Below are positions 6,124 through 63,637 of a DNA stretch of 64,000 nucleotides, one piece after another (the first letter of the stretch is position 1; each line of letters opens with the position of its first letter). Below the pieces are notes generated by a model. It had not been told where the DNA came from and ran no database searches. It was given only the letters and a program-made list of their open reading frames with translations. Location of the stretch: contig CP084166.1 of the NCBI GenBank assembly GCA_021513695.1, positions 1,568,001 through 1,632,000 on the forward strand, given 5' to 3'. The position numbers were made by a program, and so were the translations under genes. Origin of the DNA: Candidatus Heimdallarchaeum aukensis. Lineage in GTDB: Archaea; Asgardarchaeota; Heimdallarchaeia; Heimdallarchaeales; Heimdallarchaeaceae.

Positions 6124-6606
6124 TTACACTATCCTTTGTTTTCCTCCAGGAGGATTAATGAAAAATACTGTTAATAGTAATAGAAATATCCCTACAGATT
6201 CCTTAAATGTTACATTATTTACAATGTCTTGTGGTAATCCTTCTCTAAAGGCTGTAATTGCCTGGAAGCCAAAAAACACTATAAAGAGTTGTATAAAGAA
6301 ATATAGTATAACTGTGATAAATGCTCCTCTTATTAGATATCTCAAAAGTTTTCTATCTTCAGCTCTTCTTACTCTACTTAACAAATAATCTGTTACTAAT
6401 AATGATGAAGCTGTTAACACTATTGCACCAAATAGTGGAAAAGCAATTACTAAGCTAATATATCCTACCTGATTTAGTTGCACAATTTCACTGAGATAAT
6501 AATAGTGTGGTAATTGTGCAATCATGGATATTCCAAATAAGATTAAAATACTAGGTAAAGCTGCTTCTTTGTTCCAAAATCTTGATTGTTCACTCATAGC
6601 TTTCAT
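6124..6606 (-). CDS. Hypothetical integral membrane protein (about 4 TM helices)
   Basis: 160-aa ORF with four long hydrophobic segments. No family recognised. The antisense ORF 6158-6388 was rejected. Confidence 0.45.
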   Translation of the reverse strand: MKAMSEQSRFWNKEAALPSILILFGISMIAQLPHYYYLSEIVQLNQVGYISLVIAFPLFGAIVLTASSLLVTDYLLSRVRRAEDRKLLRYLIRGAFITVILYFFIQLFIVFFGFQAITAFREGLPQDIVNNVTFKESVGIFLLLLTVFFINPPGGKQRIV

Positions 6607-6679
6607 TCCTTAACATTAGGGATGCTTTTGCTATAATCAACAGTGTTTTTTTTAACTTTTCTGTTCAAGTTTCTATTAG

Positions 6680-8311
6680 TTAATGCATATCTTCCTCAAA
6701 AGAATAACCTTTTTCTATTCTAAATTCGCAGTAATTGTATCCTGTTCCATGACATTTTGTTTCTGTAACAATTGGTGGGTCTTTCAGCAGTAATGCTAGT
6801 CTTCCTGCAATGTATCCTGAAGTGAAGTCACACAGCGTTTCACCTTTGCTTTCTCCATCTTCGGTAAGATTTATTCCAGAGGAATAGGCATTTTCATAGA
6901 TTCTAATGTACATTTCATCTTCGTCCTCCCCATCTATGACTTCAACAAAAGAATACTCTCTTTTTAGGATATTTGTAGGATGAGTGAGATAAAGTTTCAA
7001 GATTTCAACTGCTTTTTTTAGCGATTCGATAGGTAAACTTTCTTCTTCTAGTACATCGTAAATTATTGTTTTACCTGGTCCAATTACACCCAACTCTCTT
7101 CCTGCAGAGTATAGTAGAGCTCCACAGAATTTATCTCTGAACTTAAGTGACATTATCTGTTGTTGTAAGATGCTTATATGCACGTAATCCACGTCATTTG
7201 GTCGTAAAGCGTTAGTCATAAGTAAAGATTCAAATCCATTTTGACTTGTTTCATGAATTAGTTCAAAAAACATTTGCTTACGATATTCTGATTTCGGAAG
7301 ATCTCCTAAGTACTGAATGTTCTTTTTACTTTCATCAATTTCTTTTACTTTATATGGAGCTTTTCCTGGTTCTTTTCCTATATATACCTCAATCTCAAAT
7401 TCACAGTAAGGATCGCCAAGCCCTTTGCACTTTGTTTCCACAACAGATGTAGCAGAACCAGTCATTGCTTCAACCGTACCTGCAATTTTTCCTGCAGTAA
7501 AGTGACACAAAGGTTCTCCTACGTTAATTACTCCAGAAACAGTACAAAGATCATGAATTCTAAGTGTAGCCTTATAATTTTCAATACTTGCTATATCACA
7601 GTGAGTAGCTTGATAAATTGGAACATCGCTATTATGACTATACAATTTGGCTAATGCGATTAGAACTTCTTGAAAACGTTCTTCTGGATTTACAGCTTGA
7701 ACATTAGGATTAAGCACTGTTAGATAGTAAGGGTCTGCACCATAAATCCCTAATTCTCTTCCACTTTGATAAAGTAATTGAGGTACTAATGGGTCTAAAG
7801 CGAGTAATGATAAAACAACTTGCTGATATACGCTGATATGGCAATAATCCCCGATAGTTTTTCGAACAATATTCTGAGAAATGAGAGAAGAGATGGTATT
7901 TTTTGTAAGAACCATCATACTTTCTTTTCTCTGAGTTTTTTTATCAGAAGCTACCATCAAAGGAAGAATATGACTCCACAATTTGTCTTTGATATCGTCT
8001 TCAGTTATCATCCCTTGTGCAATTACGCTGTCATTCATCATAATAACAGGTACTGACATTACATTATATTGAGAAGCAATCTCAGGTTCCTCTGTTATGT
8101 CTACTTTTGTTACACTCACAAGATTTTTTAGAGAGGTCCCTGCTACTTGCTCTACAACATGTTCTACAGATGGGCACGCAAAACATGTAGGGCTTGTAAA
8201 TAGTAATAATCGAACCTTAGATTGCATTTCTTCTTCTGACATAGTAACCGCATTTACAAATTTCTTAATACTTATTATTCGTTTATATTGAAAAAGATTT
8301 CTTCGATGCAA
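6680..8311 (-). CDS. Thioredoxin/glutaredoxin-like domain fused to two V4R (4-vinyl reductase / Bet3-TRAPP-related) domains
   Basis: N-terminal LLLFTSPTCFACPSVEHVV (CxxC thioredoxin fold). There are two copies of the V4R C-terminal signature: LCHFTAGKIAGTVEAMTG...ETKCKGLGDPYCEFEIEV and LCDFTSGYIAGRLALLL...ETKCHGTGYNYCEFRIEKG. A more likely start is the internal Met at 8242 (MSEEEMQ...). Confidence 0.7.
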   Translation of the reverse strand: MHRRNLFQYKRIISIKKFVNAVTMSEEEMQSKVRLLLFTSPTCFACPSVEHVVEQVAGTSLKNLVSVTKVDITEEPEIASQYNVMSVPVIMMNDSVIAQGMITEDDIKDKLWSHILPLMVASDKKTQRKESMMVLTKNTISSLISQNIVRKTIGDYCHISVYQQVVLSLLALDPLVPQLLYQSGRELGIYGADPYYLTVLNPNVQAVNPEERFQEVLIALAKLYSHNSDVPIYQATHCDIASIENYKATLRIHDLCTVSGVINVGEPLCHFTAGKIAGTVEAMTGSATSVVETKCKGLGDPYCEFEIEVYIGKEPGKAPYKVKEIDESKKNIQYLGDLPKSEYRKQMFFELIHETSQNGFESLLMTNALRPNDVDYVHISILQQQIMSLKFRDKFCGALLYSAGRELGVIGPGKTIIYDVLEEESLPIESLKKAVEILKLYLTHPTNILKREYSFVEVIDGEDEDEMYIRIYENAYSSGINLTEDGESKGETLCDFTSGYIAGRLALLLKDPPIVTETKCHGTGYNYCEFRIEKGYSFEEDMH

Positions 8312-12782: not shown

Positions 12783-13020
12783 CTTCTTTCTAACTGGTAG
12801 AGGAACTAATGAAGAAACTCTATGCTTATAATCTTTATATGCGCTGTATTTAGAAAGCAGTCTATTCTCCATAAGATACTTTTTTACGTAAAAAACTAAA
12901 TTTTTAGTTTGTGGAGTTATTAGACTAATAACAACCAGAAACACATTTGCATTAATAAAGAATATACAATATTATGGGTGTCACAACTTTTCCGCTGTCT
13001 TTATATATTCAATTATCATT

Positions 13021-18834: not shown

Positions 18835-19452
18835 GTGAGTAAAATGTTTGGAAACTTTATGAGATGGTTATTAGGAACTCAAAAATCAAGTAGAGACCAT
18901 ATAGTAAACCTTAAACTAACTATTCGCAGACTAGAAAGAGCTCAAAGGAAACTGGAGAGAGATGAATCAAGAATACAACTAAAAATGCGAACAGCTATTC
19001 AGCGTGGTGATTTAGAAGGTGCCCGTCTTTATGCTACAGATATTGTTCGTTCTCGTAAGTGGGTTTTAGGTTACCAGCGTTTAGTTTCTCGTATTAATGG
19101 TCTTATTTTTAAACTAGAACGAGCTGATTCTGCTGCTAACTTGGCAGCTGAAATGCATTCTATTGCAGGAGCTCTTCGACAAGCTAACGCTCAATTAAAT
19201 GTTCCTGATTTAGATCATGTTATTCAAGACATGGAACGTAGTATTGATGGAATTGAGGATTCAACTGAAACAATTGAAGATGGAATTGATGATCTTCTTA
19301 TTGCTGATACCGACCCAGCTGAAGTCGATAGGTTAATTGACCAAACAGCTACAGAGATGGGTGTTAGTGTAGGAGGAGAACTCCCTTCAGTAAGCGCTGT
19401 TGCAACAGACGATCTCGAGGAAGAGATTCAAAAATTAAGGAAAAAAGAGTAA
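18835..19452 (+). CDS. ESCRT-III, Vps2/24/46 (CHMP1-3)-like Snf7-family protein
   Basis: By-eye alignment to CHMP2: ARLYATDIVRSRKWV vs VRIMAKDLVRTRRYV, and MGVSVGGELPSVS vs LGLSLTDELSNLPS. The C-terminal MIM-like DLEEEIQKLRKKE matches DLEERLKNLRRD. Confidence 0.85.
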   Translation: MSKMFGNFMRWLLGTQKSSRDHIVNLKLTIRRLERAQRKLERDESRIQLKMRTAIQRGDLEGARLYATDIVRSRKWVLGYQRLVSRINGLIFKLERADSAANLAAEMHSIAGALRQANAQLNVPDLDHVIQDMERSIDGIEDSTETIEDGIDDLLIADTDPAEVDRLIDQTATEMGVSVGGELPSVSAVATDDLEEEIQKLRKKE

Positions 19453-20254: not shown

Positions 20255-21400
20255 TTGAGCGCGCAAGGACTGATTGAACACGCACGTAAATTTGCAAAAA
20301 AAGCTTATGAACTTGATAAGGCAAAACAATACAATGAGGCAATACCACTTTATCTCGACGCTGCAGAAGCTCTAATGAAAGCAATAAAATTTGAAAGAAA
20401 TCCACAAGTGGGAAAGACATTAAAGAAAAAAGCAGAGATGTACATTGAACGAGCAAAAGATCTAAAAGAAATTATTGAGAAAAAAGCTGAAAAGGGGGCA
20501 GAAACAGGGTCAGACGAAGAATCTGATAAATTAGAAGGAGCAATTAGCGATATCATAGTTACAGAAAAGCCATCAGTTACTTTGGATGATATTGCAGGAC
20601 TAGAAGAAGCAAAACGGAATCTTCGAGAAGCAATAGTGTTACCTCTTGTAAGACCAGACTTATTTAGTGGTGCAAGAAGACCATGGAAAGGGATTTTACT
20701 TTTTGGCCCCCCAGGATGTGGAAAAACTCTTTTAGCAAAAGCAACAGCTGCAGAAGTAGAAGCTACGTTTTTTAATGTTAGTGCGTCCGCGGTTATATCC
20801 AAATGGTTAGGAGAATCTGAAAAATTAGTTAATACATTATTTAAAATTGCTCGTGAAAGGCAACCAAGTATAATTTTCATAGATGAAGTAGATGCTCTTA
20901 CCGGAGCACGTGGTGGCGAGCATGATGCTATGCGCAGAGTTAAAACTGAATTATTAACTTCTATGGATGGTTTATCTAGCTCTGCTCAAGATCGTCTTGT
21001 AGTTATTGGGGCTACTAACCTTCCTGAGTCTATTGATGGAGCTTTTCGCCGTCGTTTTGAGCGTCGTATTTACATTAAGCTTCCAGATTTTGAAGCGCGT
21101 AAAGCTATCTTTCAACTAAATGTCAAAGGAGTGGACTTAGCTCCCGATGTTGATTTTGAATCTTTAGCAGAGATTACAGAAGGTTATTCTGGAGCAGATA
21201 TTGCTATGGTTTGTCGCGATGCTATTATGACTCCTATTCGTGAACTTGATTTATCAGGAGACATTCATGACCCCAATATTAAAGCCAGACCAGTTACACA
21301 AAAAGATTTTCTTGAGTCTATTCAGTCAGTTAATCCTTCTGTAAGTGCAGAAGAAATCGAGAAATATGAGAAATGGAATGAAGAATTTGGTTCAGCGTAA
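20255..21400 (+). CDS. vps4: Vps4-like AAA+ ATPase with N-terminal MIT domain
   Basis: MIT-like helices AKKAYELDKAKQYNEAIPLYLDAAEALMKAIKFERNP. Walker A GPPGCGKT and Walker B IIFIDEVD. The C-terminal helix EEIEKYEKWNEEFG matches the Vps4 pattern. TTG start preceded by GAGAGGT. Confidence 0.95.
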   Translation: MSAQGLIEHARKFAKKAYELDKAKQYNEAIPLYLDAAEALMKAIKFERNPQVGKTLKKKAEMYIERAKDLKEIIEKKAEKGAETGSDEESDKLEGAISDIIVTEKPSVTLDDIAGLEEAKRNLREAIVLPLVRPDLFSGARRPWKGILLFGPPGCGKTLLAKATAAEVEATFFNVSASAVISKWLGESEKLVNTLFKIARERQPSIIFIDEVDALTGARGGEHDAMRRVKTELLTSMDGLSSSAQDRLVVIGATNLPESIDGAFRRRFERRIYIKLPDFEARKAIFQLNVKGVDLAPDVDFESLAEITEGYSGADIAMVCRDAIMTPIRELDLSGDIHDPNIKARPVTQKDFLESIQSVNPSVSAEEIEKYEKWNEEFGSA

Positions 21401-21412
21401 AAGGGTGTTTTT

Positions 21413-21433
21413 ATGATTTACCTTTTTACGTAA
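21413..21433. repeat. Left terminal inverted repeat of element B
   Basis: ATGATTTACCTTTTTACGTAA. The reverse complement of 23311-23331 is ATGATTTACTATTTTACATAA. Confidence 0.7.
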
Positions 21434-21707
21434 GTTTTTCGCACTCGGTCTTTCAAGGGAGAAAACAGGAGTTTCATCACTTGATAACTCAACCACAACA
21501 TACAATGAAAGGAAACGTGGTTAAGACAGACGTCATACACGAATCGTGGGAATCATAAAGAAGGAAAAGAAAAAAGTAAGAAAGGAGAAAAGAAAGGAGG
21601 TTATCTCCTTCTTTATTCTACTTTCTTTTCTTTCCTTCACTCCACGAGAGACGAAAAAACAAACAAATAATCCTCTAACAAGAGAGAATGTAAGTTTATA
21701 TTTTCAT
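21413..21707 (-). ncRNA. Candidate omega-RNA/reRNA scaffold of element B (decayed copy)
   Basis: The non-coding stretch between the tnpB stop and the element end shares conserved blocks with copy A. The CTTAACC/GGTTGAG helix at 21488-94/21519-25 stays paired only in the tnpB-sense RNA, through a U-G wobble. Confidence 0.3.
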
Positions 21708-23161
21708 CTACTGGGGCTGCAACCAATGGCTGAGCCCTTGGCAAACAGTGAAATGAGTGAGACTAAATTTACGACCAGTGAGTAGATCAGTAATAGTTGT
21801 TGCACGGGGGCGGAAAAGAGAACTAAGGAGCAGACGAGCGATATTCATTGCTCCTGTTAGATCAGAGTGGAAGGTGTAATTGCAAGAGGGACAATAAACT
21901 AACCCTCTAACGGGGCGGGTAACTTTTTTTCCGCAACGGGCACAGTGAGATGATGTTCCTCTTTCCTCTATCGTCAGAATTCGGTGAGAGGGAAAACCTC
22001 TAAGTATTAGTGCACGACGGATAAAAGAAAGAACAAGAGCATAGTTCCACTGGTGAAGTTTTCTTCGTGACTTGCGATTAGTTACTCCCTTATTTTTTTC
22101 TCGTCGAATGTATTTAGGATAACCTATAACAACGAAAAGATTATAGATCCGAGCATAAACCTCTATTGTCCACACGATAGCACTTACAAATTGATTGATA
22201 TACGCTCGTCTGACGTTTCTATACCTCCGACGGAGACGTTTGAGAAAACGGTAAACTTGGTGTTTTTTACCCGATTGGTCGTTTAAAGCTGCTTTCCTCT
22301 GAAGACGGGAAAGTTTGAGTTTATATCGATGATTAACTTTATTCCACTGTTTGGTATACTAGAACTTTATTTCTTTACTTGTTACCTTCTTTTTCGGGGT
22401 CAGTAGCACTTCTACCGCAGGAATGTTTATCCCTAGATCTATTCCCAGCACAGCTGGGGGAAGAAAAGAAGAGTCAGAAGAAAGATTATCTCCCTGAAGG
22501 AAAGAAGAAGGAAGAACTTTTGAATGAAAATATATCCACCATTCACGTGTAGAACGTTTGTATCTTATTTCTAAACTTTTTACTCTTTCTTTAATTCTTT
22601 TTGATGAAACTCGCTCATCTCTAAAGGTAACCACAATCGCTGATGAAAACGTGTTTTTCTTTTCCACCTATCTAACGAGTCTCGTATTCCTACCCACCAA
22701 CGAGAAAGAGTGTTATTCTTATCTTTTGGTAGATGGACGAGGATGAACCTTTTTTTATTAATTAATTGTCTTCTTGCTCTCTTTCTTGGAGGACGAGTAT
22801 TGTTAGGTCTATATCCTTGCTCATATAGTTGCACAGCTATATCTCTACATTCTTGAAACTCATCGTGAGAACAATAGGGAAACATTTTCTTCATATCGTG
22901 AGGAACAGTCGTTCTTCTTTCTTCCTCTTTTTTTACTCTCGAGGTCGTTAATGTCAATTCGTCTAATTTTCCTTTATGTACTTTTATTTTCCCTTCTTTT
23001 GCTTTAATACCTATTTTTTTTCTGTTATGGTGTATAATTCTCACATACTTTTCTATTATTCTAGTATCTCTCCCCGTTATTCTCCTTAACTTTTCTTTTT
23101 TTCTCGTCGTCAATACTTCATTCTTCACTCTCACCTTTAACGTTTTGACGACGTCCTCCAT
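21708..23161 (-). pseudogene. tnpB: tnpB pseudogene (frameshift plus premature stop)
   Basis: Three track ORFs (22580-23161, 22359-22667, 21708-22175) together reproduce the 484-aa copy-A protein. There is an indel near 22585-22595 relative to copy A. TGG became TAG at 22359-22361 (KFWYTKQ in A, KF*YTKQ here). Confidence 0.85.
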
Positions 23162-23310
23162 CCTTTTTTTCTCCTCTTATTTTACTCTCTCTTTTTTTCT
23201 ATTTTTTTCTCTTCTTTTACTTCTTCTCTTCCTCATTATACTTTTTTTCCCTATAAAAAGTCCTTTCTTTTCTTTTTTTCTCATTATTCTTCCTCAATTT
23301 TTATATAAAG

Positions 23311-23331
23311 TTATGTAAAATAGTAAATCAT
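23311..23331. repeat. Right terminal inverted repeat of element B
   Basis: See 21413-21433. The terminal ..TCAT abuts a G, so the first ATG of the next ORF (23330) is built from the element end. Confidence 0.7.
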
Positions 23332-24130
23332 GGCTACAATGGAAAAACAAAAAGATAATGAATTTGAGCAAATTGATCTTGAAAAATTGAAAGAAGAAAA
23401 GAAAATATCAGAAGATAAGCTTAAGCTTATTGAAGCCAGTATTAAGGGATTAAAAGTTTCAGAAGAAGAACTGAAGTCCACGAAACCTATTGTTAGAGAA
23501 GAAGCAAGATTAGAACTAACAGAAGACACAAAGACGAAGCTAATTAAAGAATTTGAGCAAAGTTTACCTGATTGGGTTAACAAGCCTTGGATGTATGTCA
23601 CCCCAAAAAAGGCAAATCAAGTTGAGTCTTGGTTAGACAGTTGGTCATCAGTCATGCTTGATTATACAAAGAAATTTGTTATTCATATTGTTAATGTCAA
23701 TTCTCTTAGAGAAACTTATCCTTTTTGTAATAAGAAAATAAGAAAAGAACTTACCATCGATCAAATTCGTGATATCATCGATTTTCTTGAAACAAAGGGT
23801 TTTGCTCTTTGGATAAATGATAGGACAAAATTCTTTGAGAAACTTTTTGCAAAGATACTTGGAAAACCTTTAACAAAAAAGATCCGTGCAAAGATAGAAT
23901 GGAAAACAAAAGAAGAATTTGCTGAAGATTTACTTAAATGGATGATTGAAACCGGTAGAGTAGTTGAAGTTCACTCTTTATATGATTTAACAAAATATGA
24001 ACAACCCTGGTCTTCTTTACCTTCAGATGATTTAATCCATGTATGCAATTTACTCGTAGAAAAAGGTTCTGCTAGATGGTTAAATAGAGAAAGAACTATA
24101 ATTTCCTTTGAAGCAACAAAGGTATTCTAA
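23330..24130 (+). CDS. Vps25-like ESCRT-II subunit (two winged-helix domains) with a charged N-terminal extension
   Basis: The C-terminal 170 aa align by eye with human EAP20/Vps25: VESWLDSWSSVMLDYTKKF vs QLAAWCSLVLSFCRLH, DIIDFLETKGFALWIND vs VLEELRKKGNLEWLDK, and WKTKEEFAEDLLKWMIETGRVVEVHSLYDL vs WRRPEEWGKLIYQWVSRSGQNNSVFTLYEL. The native start may be the ATG at 23339. Confidence 0.7.
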   Translation: MATMEKQKDNEFEQIDLEKLKEEKKISEDKLKLIEASIKGLKVSEEELKSTKPIVREEARLELTEDTKTKLIKEFEQSLPDWVNKPWMYVTPKKANQVESWLDSWSSVMLDYTKKFVIHIVNVNSLRETYPFCNKKIRKELTIDQIRDIIDFLETKGFALWINDRTKFFEKLFAKILGKPLTKKIRAKIEWKTKEEFAEDLLKWMIETGRVVEVHSLYDLTKYEQPWSSLPSDDLIHVCNLLVEKGSARWLNRERTIISFEATKVF

Positions 24131-32867: not shown

Positions 32868-32912
32868 AATAACAAAGAATTACTACATAAAACATAAATG
32901 TTTTCTTTGGAC

Positions 32913-32935
32913 ATGATTTACTTTTTTCCGTAAGT
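32913..32935. repeat. Left terminal inverted repeat of element A
   Basis: See the mobile_element entry; 20/23 match to the inverted right end. Confidence 0.75.
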
Positions 32936-33173
32936 TTTTCGCACTCGGTCTTTCAAGAGAGAAAAACAATAAAATAGCTTAATCGCTTGGTAACTCAACC
33001 TAAACATACAATGAATGGGAGTGGTTGAGACAGACATCATACACGAATCGTGGGAATCATAAAGAAGAAAGGAAGAAAAAAGTAAAACCTTTTTTCTTTT
33101 TTCCTTCACTCCACGAGAGACAAAAAAGAAAGACTAACTCTAACACAAGAGGATAGAATTAGTTTCTTTTCGT
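32913..33173 (-). ncRNA. Candidate omega-RNA/reRNA scaffold of element A
   Basis: A 261-nt non-coding stretch between the tnpB stop and the element end. Its blocks are conserved with copy B (CGCACTCGGTCTTTCAAG, CATACACGAATCGTGGGAATCATAAAGAAG, CCTTCACTCCACGAGAGA). Conserved hairpins: CTCAACC/GGTTGAG (32994-33000 / 33023-33029) and a purine/pyrimidine hairpin at ~33066-33106. Confidence 0.4.
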
Positions 33174-34628
33174 CTACTGGGGCTGCAACCAATGGCTGAG
33201 CCCTCGGCAAACAGTGAAATGAGTGAGACTGAATTTCTGACCAGTGAGGTAATCAGTAATGGTGTTACATCGAGGACGGAAAAGATATCCAAGGAACTTA
33301 CGAGCGATATTCATTCCCCTTGTTAGATCAGAATGAAAAGTGTAGTTACAGGAAGAACAATGAACTAACCCTCTAACGGGACGGGAAACTTTCCTCCCGC
33401 AACGAGCACAGTGAGAAGATGTCCCTCTTTCCTCTATTGTTAATATTCGGTGAGATTCAAAGCCTCGAAGTATAAGTGCCCGACGGAGAAGAGAGAGAAC
33501 AAGAGAAAAATTCCACTGATGAAGTTTTCTGCGAAACTTACGATTACTTTTTTCTTTTTCTTTTCCTTCTCGAACATGTTTGGGGTAACCTACAACAACG
33601 AAAAGGTCATACACTTGTGCATAACTCTCTATCGTCTGCACAACATCGCTTATAAATTGGTGAATATACGCGCGTTTAACGTTTCTATACCTCCGACGAA
33701 GAAGACCAAGAAAACGGTAAACTTGGTGCTTTTTACCTAACTGGTCGTTTAAAGCTGCTTTCCTCTGAAGACGGGAAAGTTTGAGTTTATATCTATGATT
33801 GATTCTATTCCACTGTTTAGTATACCAGAATTTTATCTCTTTTTTTGTTAACTTCTTTTTAGGAGTCAGTAACACTCCTGCAGCAGGAATGTTTATCCCT
33901 AGATCTATTCCCAGCACAGCTGGGGGAAGAGAAGAAGAATTATCTCCTTGACTTGTGAGATAAAAGGAAGAAGGAGGAAGAACTTTTAATTGGAAATACA
34001 CCCACCATTCACGTGTAGAACGTTTGTATCTTAGTTCTAGACTTTTCACCCTCCCTTTCTTTAACTCTTTCTGGTGAAAATCGCTCATCTCTAAAGGTAA
34101 CCACAACTTCTGATGATAAGGTGTCTTTCTCTTCCAGGTATCTAACGAGTCTCTTATTCCTACCCACCAACGAGTAAGTGTATTATTCTTCTCTTTTGGT
34201 AGATGGACAAGAATGAACCTTTTTCCATTAATTAATTGCCTTCTTGCTCTCTTTATTGGAGGACGAGTAGGACGGGGTCTATACCCTTGTTCATATAATT
34301 GTACAGCTATATCTCTACACTCTTGGAATTCATTGTGAGAACAATAGGGAAACATTTTCTTCAAGTCGTGAGGAACAGTCTTTCTCCTCTCTTCTTCTTT
34401 TACTCTTGAAGTAGTCAGTGTCAACTCGTCTAATTTTCCTCTATGTACTCTTATTTTCCCTTTTTTTGTTCTTATACTTATTTTTCTTCTGTTGTGGTGT
34501 ATAATTCTCACATATTTTTCTATTATTCTCGTGTCTCTCCCCGTTATTCTCCTTAATCTTTCCTTTTTTCTCGTCGTCAATACCTCATTCTTTATTCTCA
34601 CTTTTAATGTTTTGACGACGTCCTCCAT
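33174..34628 (-). CDS. tnpB: TnpB-like RNA-guided endonuclease family protein (OrfB, RuvC + zinc ribbon)
   Basis: 484 aa. RuvC-I is LGIDLGINIP. The zinc ribbon is CARCGRKVSRPVRGLVHCSSCNYTFHSD. RuvC-III is HSDLTRGMNIA. The N-terminal KTLKVRIKN... is typical of TnpB. Confidence 0.9.
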   Translation of the reverse strand: MEDVVKTLKVRIKNEVLTTRKKERLRRITGRDTRIIEKYVRIIHHNRRKISIRTKKGKIRVHRGKLDELTLTTSRVKEEERRKTVPHDLKKMFPYCSHNEFQECRDIAVQLYEQGYRPRPTRPPIKRARRQLINGKRFILVHLPKEKNNTLTRWWVGIRDSLDTWKRKTPYHQKLWLPLEMSDFHQKELKKGRVKSLELRYKRSTREWWVYFQLKVLPPSSFYLTSQGDNSSSLPPAVLGIDLGINIPAAGVLLTPKKKLTKKEIKFWYTKQWNRINHRYKLKLSRLQRKAALNDQLGKKHQVYRFLGLLRRRYRNVKRAYIHQFISDVVQTIESYAQVYDLFVVVGYPKHVREGKEKEKSNRKFRRKLHQWNFSLVLSLLRRALILRGFESHRILTIEERGTSSHCARCGRKVSRPVRGLVHCSSCNYTFHSDLTRGMNIARKFLGYLFRPRCNTITDYLTGQKFSLTHFTVCRGLSHWLQPQ

Positions 34629-34780
34629 CTTTCTTTCCTCTTTTCTTATTCTAAACTTTTTTCTTCTCCTTTAATTATACTTTTTTTCCCTATAAAAATT
34701 CCTCACTTTTTCTTCTCTCCCTCCCTCTTCCTTCCTTCTTTCCTTTCTTTTTTCGTTGCACTCTTCCTCAATTTTTATAA

Positions 34781-34803
34781 ATTTACGTAAAAAAGTAAGT
34801 CAT
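34781..34803. repeat. Right terminal inverted repeat of element A
   Basis: ATTTACGTAAAAAAGTAAGTCAT, the inverted match to 32913-32935. Confidence 0.75.
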
Positions 34804-34947
34804 TTATTATGCTTTTCTTTAAAGTTTTTACAGTAAGTGCTGAATGTTTCTATTTCATTTATCCCTGAAAGAGGACAATAGTATAAAAAAGTGTAAAAAA
34901 CAATAATTAAGAAAATATTTATAGTTTAACAAAAATAAAAAACATCA

Positions 34948-62172: not shown

Positions 62173-63637
62173 TAATCAACTTGATTTTTGTACAAAAATA
62201 AATTTTGTGCAAGAATCTTGCTCTCGGAAAGCACTAAAAGAAACTATCACGAAGGAGAGTTTAGATTAGGCGAACCGGTCATAGAGCCAGAGGAGAGAGT
62301 TGATAAACCCTCGACCACGGAAACTGGAAAAAAGAACTTTTTCCGCTCACGTGGGACAGGAAAATAAGAAAAAAAGGAAGAAGAGAGAGGGAGAGGAAGA
62401 GAACCAAAAAAGAGAAGAGAAAGGTTGCGAGAGGCGTTGCGGTCAGAGTGAACTTCAAAACCACAAGAAACGCAACGAAAAAGGTCACGAGTGACACGGG
62501 AGGAAGGAGAAACGTGACCGCAACGAGAGCAACGTTGACTGGTATAATGAGGGGGGACAGGAAGAACAGGAATATGCTTTTCTTCAGCAAGAGAGGTCAA
62601 GAAAGAGAGGAAAAAGCGATAAGACCAGCGGTTGAGAGAGCGACGAATACGTTCTCTTCCTCTAAAATTCTTTTTAGTCCATTTTTTTCTTATTTTACTA
62701 ATTTCTTCAATTACTATCGCAGAGCGTGTAACTACTGCTAAATCTACAATCTCGTGAGCTATTTGCTCACATCGGGTTTTGTTATAATTTTTTTCTTTAT
62801 TTTTCAATCTTTTTAACGCACGCCGTGCTTTTTCACTTCCTTTATCAGCATACGATTGTAGCTTTCTTCTTCTTTCATTAAACTTATGTTGTTTCCAGGC
62901 AAGATCTTTTCCGAGGTAACGTTCAATTAGAGTAAAAGAGGGATGATTAAGTGTTATTGCGGCAGCTATCTTTCTACCTACGTCTACTCCTATCGTTCCT
63001 TCTACTTGTTGAGGAGGAAAAAGGTTAAGTTCTTTACGTAAAATTATGTGCTCTACCCACTTTCTTTCCCGTTTAAAGACTTTACAACTATGCTCTTTCC
63101 ATCCTTCTCTGCGGTATGCTTCTACTCTTCTCCATCCTCCATCTAGTTTGATAGGTATAGCTATCCTTTCTTTCATCGGAGAAATAGCTAAAACAGGGTT
63201 CCCTCTCTCTGTTTCTTTTATTCCTCCACTCCTGGGAAAGTTGAACTCCAACGGTAAATTATCGAACTTTTTCACTTTCCTTGCCGCATAAACTCTTCTC
63301 TGTACCGCTTCTTGCACTTGACTGTGTAACTTCACATATTTGAACCTCTTATATACTAAATGATGGAACTCTTTTCCTGATTTCGCTTTTTCCTTGAACA
63401 CTATTATTTTATTTGCCATCTCTGTCGCTTTTTTCTGTGCTCTCTGCATGTATGCTCTTTTTCTTCTACTCGGGAGAATATTCACTTTTACTGTTTTTTC
63501 TTTCCACTTCCTTTTCTTTCCTTTTCTTCTCCCTTTCGTTTTCATTCCTTCTTCTTACTTTTTTTTCCTATATAAACCCCTCTCCTCTCTCTTTCCTTTT
63601 CTTTTCTTTCCTCTTTTTTTACAAAAAACTTGTTCAT
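62171..63637 (-). mobile_element. Third TnpB-only element (copy C, different subfamily); boundaries approximate
   Basis: The tnpB ORF is flanked by a pyrimidine-rich leader region and by ends resembling those of copies A/B (..TTTACAAAAAACTTGTTCAT at 63618-63637; ATTAATCAACTTGATTTTTGTA from 62171). The alignment of the ends needs indels, so the limits are uncertain. Confidence 0.5.
62247..63545 (-). CDS. tnpB: TnpB-like protein (OrfB, RuvC + zinc ribbon), second subfamily
   Basis: RuvC-I is IGVDVGRKIAAA. NRWSYRFFLSFLTSLAEEKHIPVLPVPPHYTSQRCSRCGH...CVSCGFEVHSDRNASRNL carries the zinc ribbon and RuvC-III. The last ~55 aa are low-complexity and may be read-through of the RNA-coding 3' region. Confidence 0.85.
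   Translation of the reverse strand: MKTKGRRKGKKRKWKEKTVKVNILPSRRKRAYMQRAQKKATEMANKIIVFKEKAKSGKEFHHLVYKRFKYVKLHSQVQEAVQRRVYAARKVKKFDNLPLEFNFPRSGGIKETERGNPVLAISPMKERIAIPIKLDGGWRRVEAYRREGWKEHSCKVFKRERKWVEHIILRKELNLFPPQQVEGTIGVDVGRKIAAAITLNHPSFTLIERYLGKDLAWKQHKFNERRRKLQSYADKGSEKARRALKRLKNKEKNYNKTRCEQIAHEIVDLAVVTRSAIVIEEISKIRKKWTKKNFRGRERIRRSLNRWSYRFFLSFLTSLAEEKHIPVLPVPPHYTSQRCSRCGHVSPSSRVTRDLFRCVSCGFEVHSDRNASRNLSLLFFGSLPLPLSSSFFSYFPVPRERKKFFFPVSVVEGLSTLSSGSMTGSPNLNSPS

Follow-up and report, generated by a model that had tools for sequence, protein, structure and literature searches.

The two related transposon copies within a 64,000-nt stretch of the Candidatus Heimdallarchaeum aukensis genome, here called the window, raise the question of whether the non-coding sequence downstream of their tnpB genes specifies a guide RNA (omega RNA or reRNA) and, if so, in what kind of mobile element this RNA resides. 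Copy A occupies positions 32913-34803 and carries an intact tnpB gene on the minus strand (33174-34628) that encodes a protein of 484 amino acids, identical to UJG39587.1 of Ca. Heimdallarchaeum aukensis; copy B (21413-23331, minus strand) is the same element at 80.5% overall identity to copy A, with a tnpB pseudogene that contains one frameshift near residues 186-191 and one in-frame stop codon. A preliminary description of this DNA had reported 260-295 nt of non-coding sequence between the tnpB stop codon and the element terminus, and a conservation pattern of near-identical blocks interspersed with diverged blocks; the non-coding interval measures 261 nt in copy A and 295 nt in copy B (21413-21707), and the alternating blocks are evident in the A/B alignment. 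From the comparative analysis presented here, this module is probably the scaffold of a TnpB guide RNA that belongs to a multi-copy Heimdallarchaeum transposon bounded by terminal inverted repeats (TIRs). The module is also kept in copy B, from 21413 to approximately 21753, with a predicted guide at 21393-21412.

A protein search for relatives of the copy A TnpB returned 168 sequences, nearly all of them from Heimdall- and Thorarchaeota, and a genome scan with the TnpB query yielded 77 loci. These included 12 close copies in Ca. H. endolithica (82-90% amino acid identity), the loci L013 and L014 at 53% identity, and approximately 15 loci at 40-48% identity that constitute family 2, besides more distant groups; the 13 family 2 copies that entered the boundary and fold tests belong to a family whose range is also given as 42-48% protein identity. 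Five further distinct close copies were obtained from a metagenome scan and from exact-protein look-ups. The metagenome scan, performed with the invariant 17-mer TCTCTCGTGGAGTGAAG, produced 58 loci of which four are true copies; two others, L093 and L119, are weak partial nhmmer matches, and the remaining non-copy loci are chance matches. In total, 19 close copies were used for boundary analysis and 18 were included in the sense alignment (A3) for folding.

In tnpB orientation, all 19 close copies can be aligned from approximately 45 nt inside the 3' end of the ORF to a common terminus, ...AAAAGTAAATCAT, where the similarity stops abruptly after ...GTAAATCAT; from the next base onward the sequences are unrelated. 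The 13 copies of family 2 have a similarly sharp end, at ...GGGGAAAATAACTCAT, and in L013 and L014 the module ends at ...AAAATTAACTCAT. Such a sharp junction of scaffold and flank is the literature signature for placing TnpB guide RNAs (PMC10691335); in the 19 close copies, it falls exactly at the position predicted in the preliminary description. Conservation of the candidate scaffold ends at the right transposon end and is followed by variable flanking sequence. In copy A, the candidate scaffold covers approximately 305 nt on the minus strand (32913-33219), composed of the last ~45 nt of the tnpB ORF and the 261-nt non-coding module, and its 3' end reads ...GUAAAUCAU. The module had originally been assigned to positions 32913-33173; the non-coding part of this span stands, but the predicted RNA is longer, since it starts ~45 nt inside the ORF. 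The guide had likewise been expected to begin just beyond 32913 in copy A and 21413 in copy B; the boundary is indeed located there, but the terminal AT dinucleotide (32913-32914 and 21413-21414) is itself host-derived. The predicted guide of copy A would be the flank immediately after the scaffold end (32893-32912, minus strand; GUCCAAAGAAAACAUUUAUG), which matches the empty site of L147, and the AU that precedes it would be target-derived as well. A second exact occurrence of GTAAATCAT was observed in L142 (positions 6920-6928), 2.2 kb downstream of the element and in or next to a called gene (6599-7453); it may represent another element end or a chance match.

The sense alignment of the 18 close copies folds in RNAalifold into 96 pairs and 13 helices (-55.45 kcal/mol), with 97.7% of the cells paired. 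Both sides have changed in 17 pairs, compared to 9.4±1.5 in column shuffles; as the 18 copies represent about three subfamilies, many of the compensatory cells are inherited and are not independent events. None of 500 column shuffles reached the observed pairing, double-change count or covariation score, and sliding the 3' partners by 1-3 columns reduced pairing from 97.7% to 40-49% and left 1-9 double-change pairs. The sense RNA of copy A alone has a minimum free energy (MFE) of -88.2 kcal/mol (z = -5.75), which none of 100 shuffles equalled.

Five local helices, all predicted on the minus strand, are well supported by the alignment. Beginning within the gene, the hairpin at the 3' end of the ORF (33180-33203; GGGCUCAGCC AUU GGUUGCAGCCC) has 10 pairs, one of which is A-U in nine copies, G-C in five and G-U in two; analogous hairpins with compensated changes occur in L013 and in family 2. 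A long hairpin that starts from the stop codon (33119-33174; GACGAAAAGAAA...UUUCUUUUUUGUC) and its small inner hairpin together contribute 15 + 4 pairs, five of them double-changed. The hairpin formed by a purine arm and a pyrimidine arm (hairpin 2, 33066-33106) has eight pairs and is 98.6% paired; it had been described as preserved in both copies despite changes in length and sequence, and it is in fact kept in every copy, with two pairs changing on both sides, one pair shifting from A-U to G-C in five copies, and a length that varies to the extent that the copy B version is ~38 nt longer. Hairpin 1 (32994-33029; CUCAACC...GGUUGAG) contains a conserved CAUUGUAUG in its apical part. Closest to the terminus, the 3' hairpin (32954-32989; CAAGCGAUUAAGC...UCUCUCUUG) has 12 pairs, four of them double-changed; one example is a pair that reads A-U in 10 copies and G-C in eight.

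The coordinates and sequences that had been given for hairpins 1 and 2 could all be verified in both copies. For hairpin 1, these are CTCAACC (32994-33000) and GGTTGAG (33023-33029) in copy A, and CTCAACC (21488-21494) and GGTTAAG (21519-21525) in copy B; the copy B difference does produce a C-A mismatch on the plus strand and a U·G pair in tnpB sense. Across the 18 copies, the variable pair is U-A in 10, C-G in seven and U-G in one, in other words compensated and not broken, and a second stem pair has changed from C-G to U-A in the L003 subfamily, as seen by eye (RNAalifold left this pair unscored). The check that had been named at the outset, whether additional copies break the helices, turned out in favor of the RNA: the helices are kept in the 19 close copies and in the 13 copies of family 2. 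Four other helices are invariant, hence without covariation either way; these are H2, in which GUUUGC from within the ORF would pair with the terminal GUAAAU, and H6, H8 and H9. Both H8 and H6 have a competitor in the helix CGUGG x CCACG, which is favored in the single-sequence MFE structure, in L013 and in family 2, and which has a U·C mismatch in 7 of the 18 copies. A search of the module against Rfam gave no match at gathering score, and the E-value scan returned only low-complexity chance matches (E at least 0.2).

The preliminary description had argued from the single altered pair in copy B that a functional RNA is made from the tnpB strand, and this argument generalizes. The consensus fold on the tnpB strand has an energy of -55.5 kcal/mol, 96 pairs and 17 double-changed pairs, versus -36.6 kcal/mol, 69 pairs and 10 double-changed pairs on the opposite strand; for copy A alone, the corresponding MFE values are -88.2 (z = -5.75) in sense and -77.8 (z = -3.76) in antisense orientation. 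If the strand were irrelevant, transitions should yield G·U and A·C combinations equally; yet the minority variants of the sense structure include G·U in 28 pair columns versus nine for A·C, a count that is partly circular because the structure itself was predicted on the sense strand. Selection on the module is indicated by the mean pairwise diversity of the full-length copies, which is lower in the 3' module (0.197) than at third codon positions (0.244) and at the left end (0.306). Third-position diversity drops to 0.02-0.09 in the last 12 tnpB codons, a level found in runs that make up only 4% of the ORF; this constraint goes beyond what coding explains, and the near-freeze implies that the functional unit begins ~45 nt before the stop codon, near 33219. 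The module is therefore found on the tnpB strand, where it overlaps and follows the 3' end of the gene.

Family 2 provides a separate test of the structure. Folded on its own, it forms 75 pairs that are 96.5% paired, with 13 double-change pairs versus 4.2±1.4 in shuffles, and its elements and short motifs follow one another as they do in the close copies. The motif order common to the three families consists of an AGCCAWTGGYT hairpin, TGGAGTGA, ATGAKTCCC, CAYTGTRTG, GAGTSC..AAAA and the end TAAMTCAT. Where the close copies have hairpin 1, family 2 forms a hairpin with an unrelated stem (CACCUCC...GGAGGUG) around CACUGUGUG, the conserved CAYUGURUG. The TIRs of family 2 (23-26 bp) are unrelated in sequence and are placed at the same distances, ~94 nt upstream of the ATG and ~260 nt beyond the match end. 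Built on the 3' half of the module, a covariance model recovered the close copies only; L013 and L014 scored at E ~3, and family 2 was undetected. Since this model does not bridge the families, homology across them rests on motif order and on the separate folds.

The presumed partner of this RNA has the characteristics of a TnpB nuclease. The copy A protein matches NCBIfam guided_TnpB (8.4e-21, below the model cut-off) and Pfam Cas12f1-like_TNB; its AF2 model (pLDDT 81) matched, in Foldseek and over its whole length, AsCas12f, OsCas12f, CnCas12f1, ISDra2 TnpB (8h1j) and the mimivirus Fanzor2 (9b0l). A PDB search with the single TnpB sequence gave no match, whereas a profile search did. The TnpB fold and the zinc finger are present, and 22 aligned relatives show no variation at D242, E400, D434 or the four zinc-finger cysteines. 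At the canonical RuvC-II position, which reads VVVGYP, the usual glutamate is replaced by glycine. Alternative RuvC-II glutamates are known from other TnpB clades and from Fanzors. The copy A protein fits the published Ealt pattern (PMC10711439) with D-L-G, 155 residues, E400, six residues, CxxC, 13 residues, CxxC, six residues and D434, and so do 108 of 111 full-length relatives; nuclease activity would then rest on the predicted alternative glutamate E400. Clades with a RuvC-II glutamate-to-glycine rearrangement and compensation elsewhere in the protein, some of them archaeal, have been described (PMC10691335).

Every comparative test run is consistent with the reading of the module as a TnpB guide-RNA scaffold. 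This reading draws on the position of the module on the same strand, directly downstream of and overlapping tnpB; on conservation that ends at the terminus in 19 close copies, 13 copies of family 2, and L013 and L014; on covariation in the close copies that was replicated independently in family 2; on the motif order common to three families together with the strand asymmetry; on purifying selection on the module and the near-frozen synonymous sites of the last 12 codons; on a protein that has the TnpB/Cas12f fold over its full length and in which D242, E400, D434 and the zinc finger do not vary; and on recent mobility, as documented by empty sites for both window copies.

Several other explanations for a conserved region at this position have to be weighed. 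The last ~21 bp are certainly a signal at the DNA level, since they form a TIR with the left end, and the entire module could in principle be a cis-acting DNA end, with subterminal transposase-binding sites or single-stranded DNA hairpins that serve transposition and not an RNA. IS200/IS605 ends use single-stranded DNA hairpins, and both the covariation and the G·T asymmetry would also fit single-stranded DNA structure; however, the conserved structured region is ~305 nt long and reaches into the ORF, whereas nothing comparable exists at the left end, where conservation is the lowest in the element (diversity 0.306). Moreover, inverted-repeat transposons need symmetric ends, but the module exists only at the tnpB 3' end of the element, and a similar layout recurs in families with unrelated TIR sequences; a pure DNA end is therefore improbable. 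An RNA without guide function, either a structured 3' UTR or a small RNA that regulates stability, termination or translation of the tnpB mRNA, would equally be expected to have sense-strand structure and to overlap the end of the ORF. It is disfavored to a marginally greater degree, because in each family the conserved sequence stops precisely at the end of the transposon, as is characteristic of a junction between scaffold and guide, because the family of the partner protein always works with such an RNA (PMC10691335, PMC10711439), and because the module is kept in copy B, where tnpB is a pseudogene.

The similarity could also be without function and simply reflect the recent common descent of transposon copies, which are 80-95% identical overall and share many inherited covariation cells. 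This is very unlikely, as the module is more conserved than synonymous sites and the left end, double changes maintain pairing far above the shuffled and slid controls, and a family at 42-48% protein identity keeps the same architecture with different sequence. Finally, a 63-aa ORF (32918-33109, minus strand) was listed among the open reading frames and might suggest that the region codes for a small protein; in the 17 other copies, the frame remains open over no more than 12-48 codons and shifts with hairpin indels, so that this ORF is not conserved and is refuted as a gene, and a coding function can be given almost no credence.

The type of transposon that carries the candidate scaffold differs from what the preliminary description had assumed. 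The IS200/IS605 placement does not hold for an element that has ~21-bp TIRs and a 2-bp AT target duplication and is not of the canonical type. In copy A, the right-end TIR (32913-32933; ATGATTTACTTTTTTCCGTAA), which is also the scaffold 3' end, matches the reverse complement of the left-end TIR (34783-34803), and the AT duplication accounts for positions 32913-32914 and 34802-34803. The TIR pattern has six matches in the window versus 0.03 expected. Copy B is inserted between vps4 (20255-21400) and the gene of an ESCRT-II subunit (23330-24130); in two related genomes with the empty site (L146:4147-4158 and L144:4147-4173) these genes are 12-27 nt apart, and the empty junction reads ...GATTTT-AT-GGCTACA (in L146, ...GATTTTATGGCTACA). 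Copy A is inserted between a hydrolase gene and a PALP gene; its empty site in L147, a strain with a 99% identical hydrolase, reads ...TAATAA-AT-GTCCAAAG, with the junction ...TAATAAATGTCCAAAG. The transposon family is multi-copy and has recently been mobile in Heimdallarchaeum, as empty sites exist for both window copies. At both sites AT is present once when the site is empty, and at both ends of the insertion when it is filled; it follows that the element proper extends from 5'-GAYTTAC to GTAAATC-3' with a perfect TIR, and that the terminal AU of the RNA would be target-derived. An alternative formal reading of this pattern is insertion 3' of AT by an element that itself ends in AT; the symmetry of the ends favors duplication or crossover at AT.

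A C precedes the left AT in 28 of 29 distinct copies, and a G follows the right AT in 22 of 34; no longer TAM-like motif was found beyond the C before AT in the copies compared. The base composition suggests a C-AT-G target with extra constraint on the 5' C; such a constraint would be explained by a TAM, with C-AT as the candidate TAM context. Two observations concern the insertion sites themselves. Copy B splits an ESCRT gene cluster, and the insertion has left the ESCRT-II gene with a start codon that overlaps the terminal AT of the element. On the left-end side of copy A, ~55 extra nt are present (window 34804-34870 vs L147:2930-2950); these were considered as a target duplicate, but their local alignment to the opposite flank was no better than that of shuffles, and they read as an intergenic indel. 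Within the element, all close copies have a conserved TTTTTATAGGGAAAAAAAGTA box in tnpB orientation, ~50-100 nt upstream of the tnpB start (34660-34720 in copy A, 23235-23280 in copy B); the box looks like an archaeal TATA/BRE promoter, and the purine-rich spacer around it varies widely in length.

The gene tnpB is the sole gene of the element. No transposase gene was found within 1.5 kb of any copy, and a DDE gene was found in or adjoining none of the 35 elements examined. A partner transposase was also sought among recurrent neighbors; the window family has none, and the upstream genes that recur in distant relatives do not explain the window element. One of these is a divergent ORF of more than 410 amino acids, without Pfam hit, upstream in Thorarchaeota relatives at 29-35% identity (L045-L063, e.g., L049:1427 and L060:1436). 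The other is a same-strand upstream gene that recurs in Heimdall relatives at ~37% identity (L136:3957-5612; L024, L031, L036, L039 and L066); in L136 it encodes a 551-aa DUF87 (HerA-like ATPase) protein, and three such loci come from one assembly. The DUF87 gene may belong to a larger element, as cargo or as a partner.

Comparison with known systems places the RNA in a familiar class and the transposon in an unusual context. As in ISDra2-type TnpB elements of the IS200/IS605 group, the RNA would be located at and beyond the tnpB 3' end on the same strand, with a scaffold that ends at the right transposon end and a guide that would be taken from the flank; the proteins share the same fold (Foldseek 8h1j). 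IS200/IS605 elements do not duplicate their target and insert on the 3' side of a fixed tetra- or pentanucleotide. The window element, with only tnpB and 21-bp TIRs, has neither a Y1 (HUH) TnpA nor asymmetric hairpin ends lacking inverted repeats and target duplication; it has TIRs and a 2-bp AT duplication instead. Its ~305-nt scaffold has no sequence or Rfam match, and its RuvC-II glutamate is in the alternative position, in further contrast to the ISDra2 type.

Closer parallels for the terminus come from IS607 TnpB (ISXfa1) and Fanzor reRNAs, where the right-flanking nucleotide of IS607, or the target-site duplication of eukaryotic TIR transposons, is built into the reRNA scaffold and TIR bases lie inside the reRNA (PMC10711439); the window scaffold likewise ends with the TIR and the duplicated AU. 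The window TnpB resembles Fanzors in its Ealt glutamate six residues before the zinc finger, but differs in RuvC-I (DLG, versus DPG in Fanzors) and in its host, an Asgard archaeon. Membership in IS607 was considered and rejected: IS607 elements have a serine recombinase as TnpA, lack TIRs and have their crossover at GG dinucleotides (PMC6188088, PMC10711439), whereas the window element has TIRs, a flanking AT dinucleotide, and no recombinase gene, in particular no serine recombinase.

The inverted terminal repeats and short target duplication agree with a DDE-type TIR transposon. According to a published census, all DDE-linked TnpBs are flanked by inverted terminal repeats, there are solo TnpBs with the ends of autonomous relatives, and the TnpB 3' end is in most cases at most 250 bp from the transposon end (PMC10691335). 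The window element resembles the DDE-associated and solo TnpBs and the RIIr clades of that study in its inverted repeats and its RuvC-II glycine; it differs from the DDE-linked TnpBs in that none of the 35 elements examined has a DDE gene in or next to it. For TnpBs associated with an Asgard Cas1 (aCas1), a GTTCACTCA motif has been published (PMC10691335). The divergent upstream ORF of the Thorarchaeota relatives recalls this arrangement, and could, as a guess, be an aCas1; L049 and L060 carry inverted GAGTGAGTGAACTC / GAGTGAAC repeats that resemble GTTCACTCA. In contrast, the window family has no such neighbor and has other ends. The archaeal IS200/IS605 omega RNAs, to the extent that their published description permits comparison (PMC12558985), are TnpB-linked sense RNAs at element ends as well, but belong to another transposon type and are unrelated in sequence.

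By analogy with these systems, a mechanism can be outlined for which we infer transcription and processing of the RNA, a guide taken from the flank, a TAM, cleavage at the empty site, and mobilization in trans. The RNA would have tnpB sense and would most likely be the 3' portion of the tnpB transcript; it would start ~45 nt before the stop codon and, as the covariation shows, fold into a series of hairpins. It would end in ...GUAAAUC-AU and, as in characterized TnpB systems, continue into the flank as the guide. The TnpB-RNA complex would then recognize and cut the element-less site C-AT-flank, and the element would thereby be more likely to be retained or copied anew. The final ~21 nt of the scaffold would double as the right TIR, presumably for a transposase acting in trans, and the terminal AU would stem from the 2-bp duplication.

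The candidate scaffold thus adds an uncatalogued example to the TnpB guide RNAs, and its transposon setting is uncommon among prokaryotes, though with precedents; nothing is overturned, as such an RNA is expected for every TnpB. The locus offers a testable set for an uncharacterized archaeal TnpB clade, consisting of a 484-aa predicted nuclease, a ~305-nt scaffold, two natural targets (the empty sites of L146 and L147), and C-AT as candidate TAM. It would indicate that RNA-guided TnpB logic can reside in a TIR/target-duplication transposon of Asgard archaea, in parallel to Fanzors, and bears on the adaptation of guide RNAs to different transposition chemistries. A bolder proposal, which is speculative and rather doubtful at present, is that these elements constitute an undescribed, Asgard-specific family of cut-and-paste or circle-forming transposons, with TIRs GAYTTAC...GTAAATC, a C-AT-G target with 2-bp AT duplication, an Ealt-type TnpB as the only gene, and a ~305-nt guide RNA whose scaffold has come to include both the TIR and the duplication, mobilized by a transposase not yet linked to TnpB. 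If true, an arrangement so far described for eukaryotic Fanzor transposons would occur in an archaeal lineage often placed closest to the eukaryotes.

Other parts of the window yielded additional observations. A third TnpB gene (62247-63545, minus strand; 432 aa) is unrelated and more canonical, with a Pfam match to Cas12f1-like_TNB (7.5e-19) and a weak match to OrfB_IS605; it is separated from the next gene by ~74 nt, and upstream it has a region similar to the promoter-like TATA/pyrimidine tract of the copy A/B family. At 19239-19313 (plus strand), an Rfam match to the C/D-box family SNORD36 (31.9 bits vs a gathering score of 30; E = 0.38) may represent an archaeal C/D sRNA; it lies a short distance upstream of the ESCRT cluster. 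The intergenic near-palindrome ATAAGATACTTTTTTACGTAAAAAACTAAATTTT (12871-12904) matches the TIR on both strands, with three mismatches each, and is a weak match to the covariance model (E = 4.5); it resembles a solo end in decay or a pair of abutted ends.
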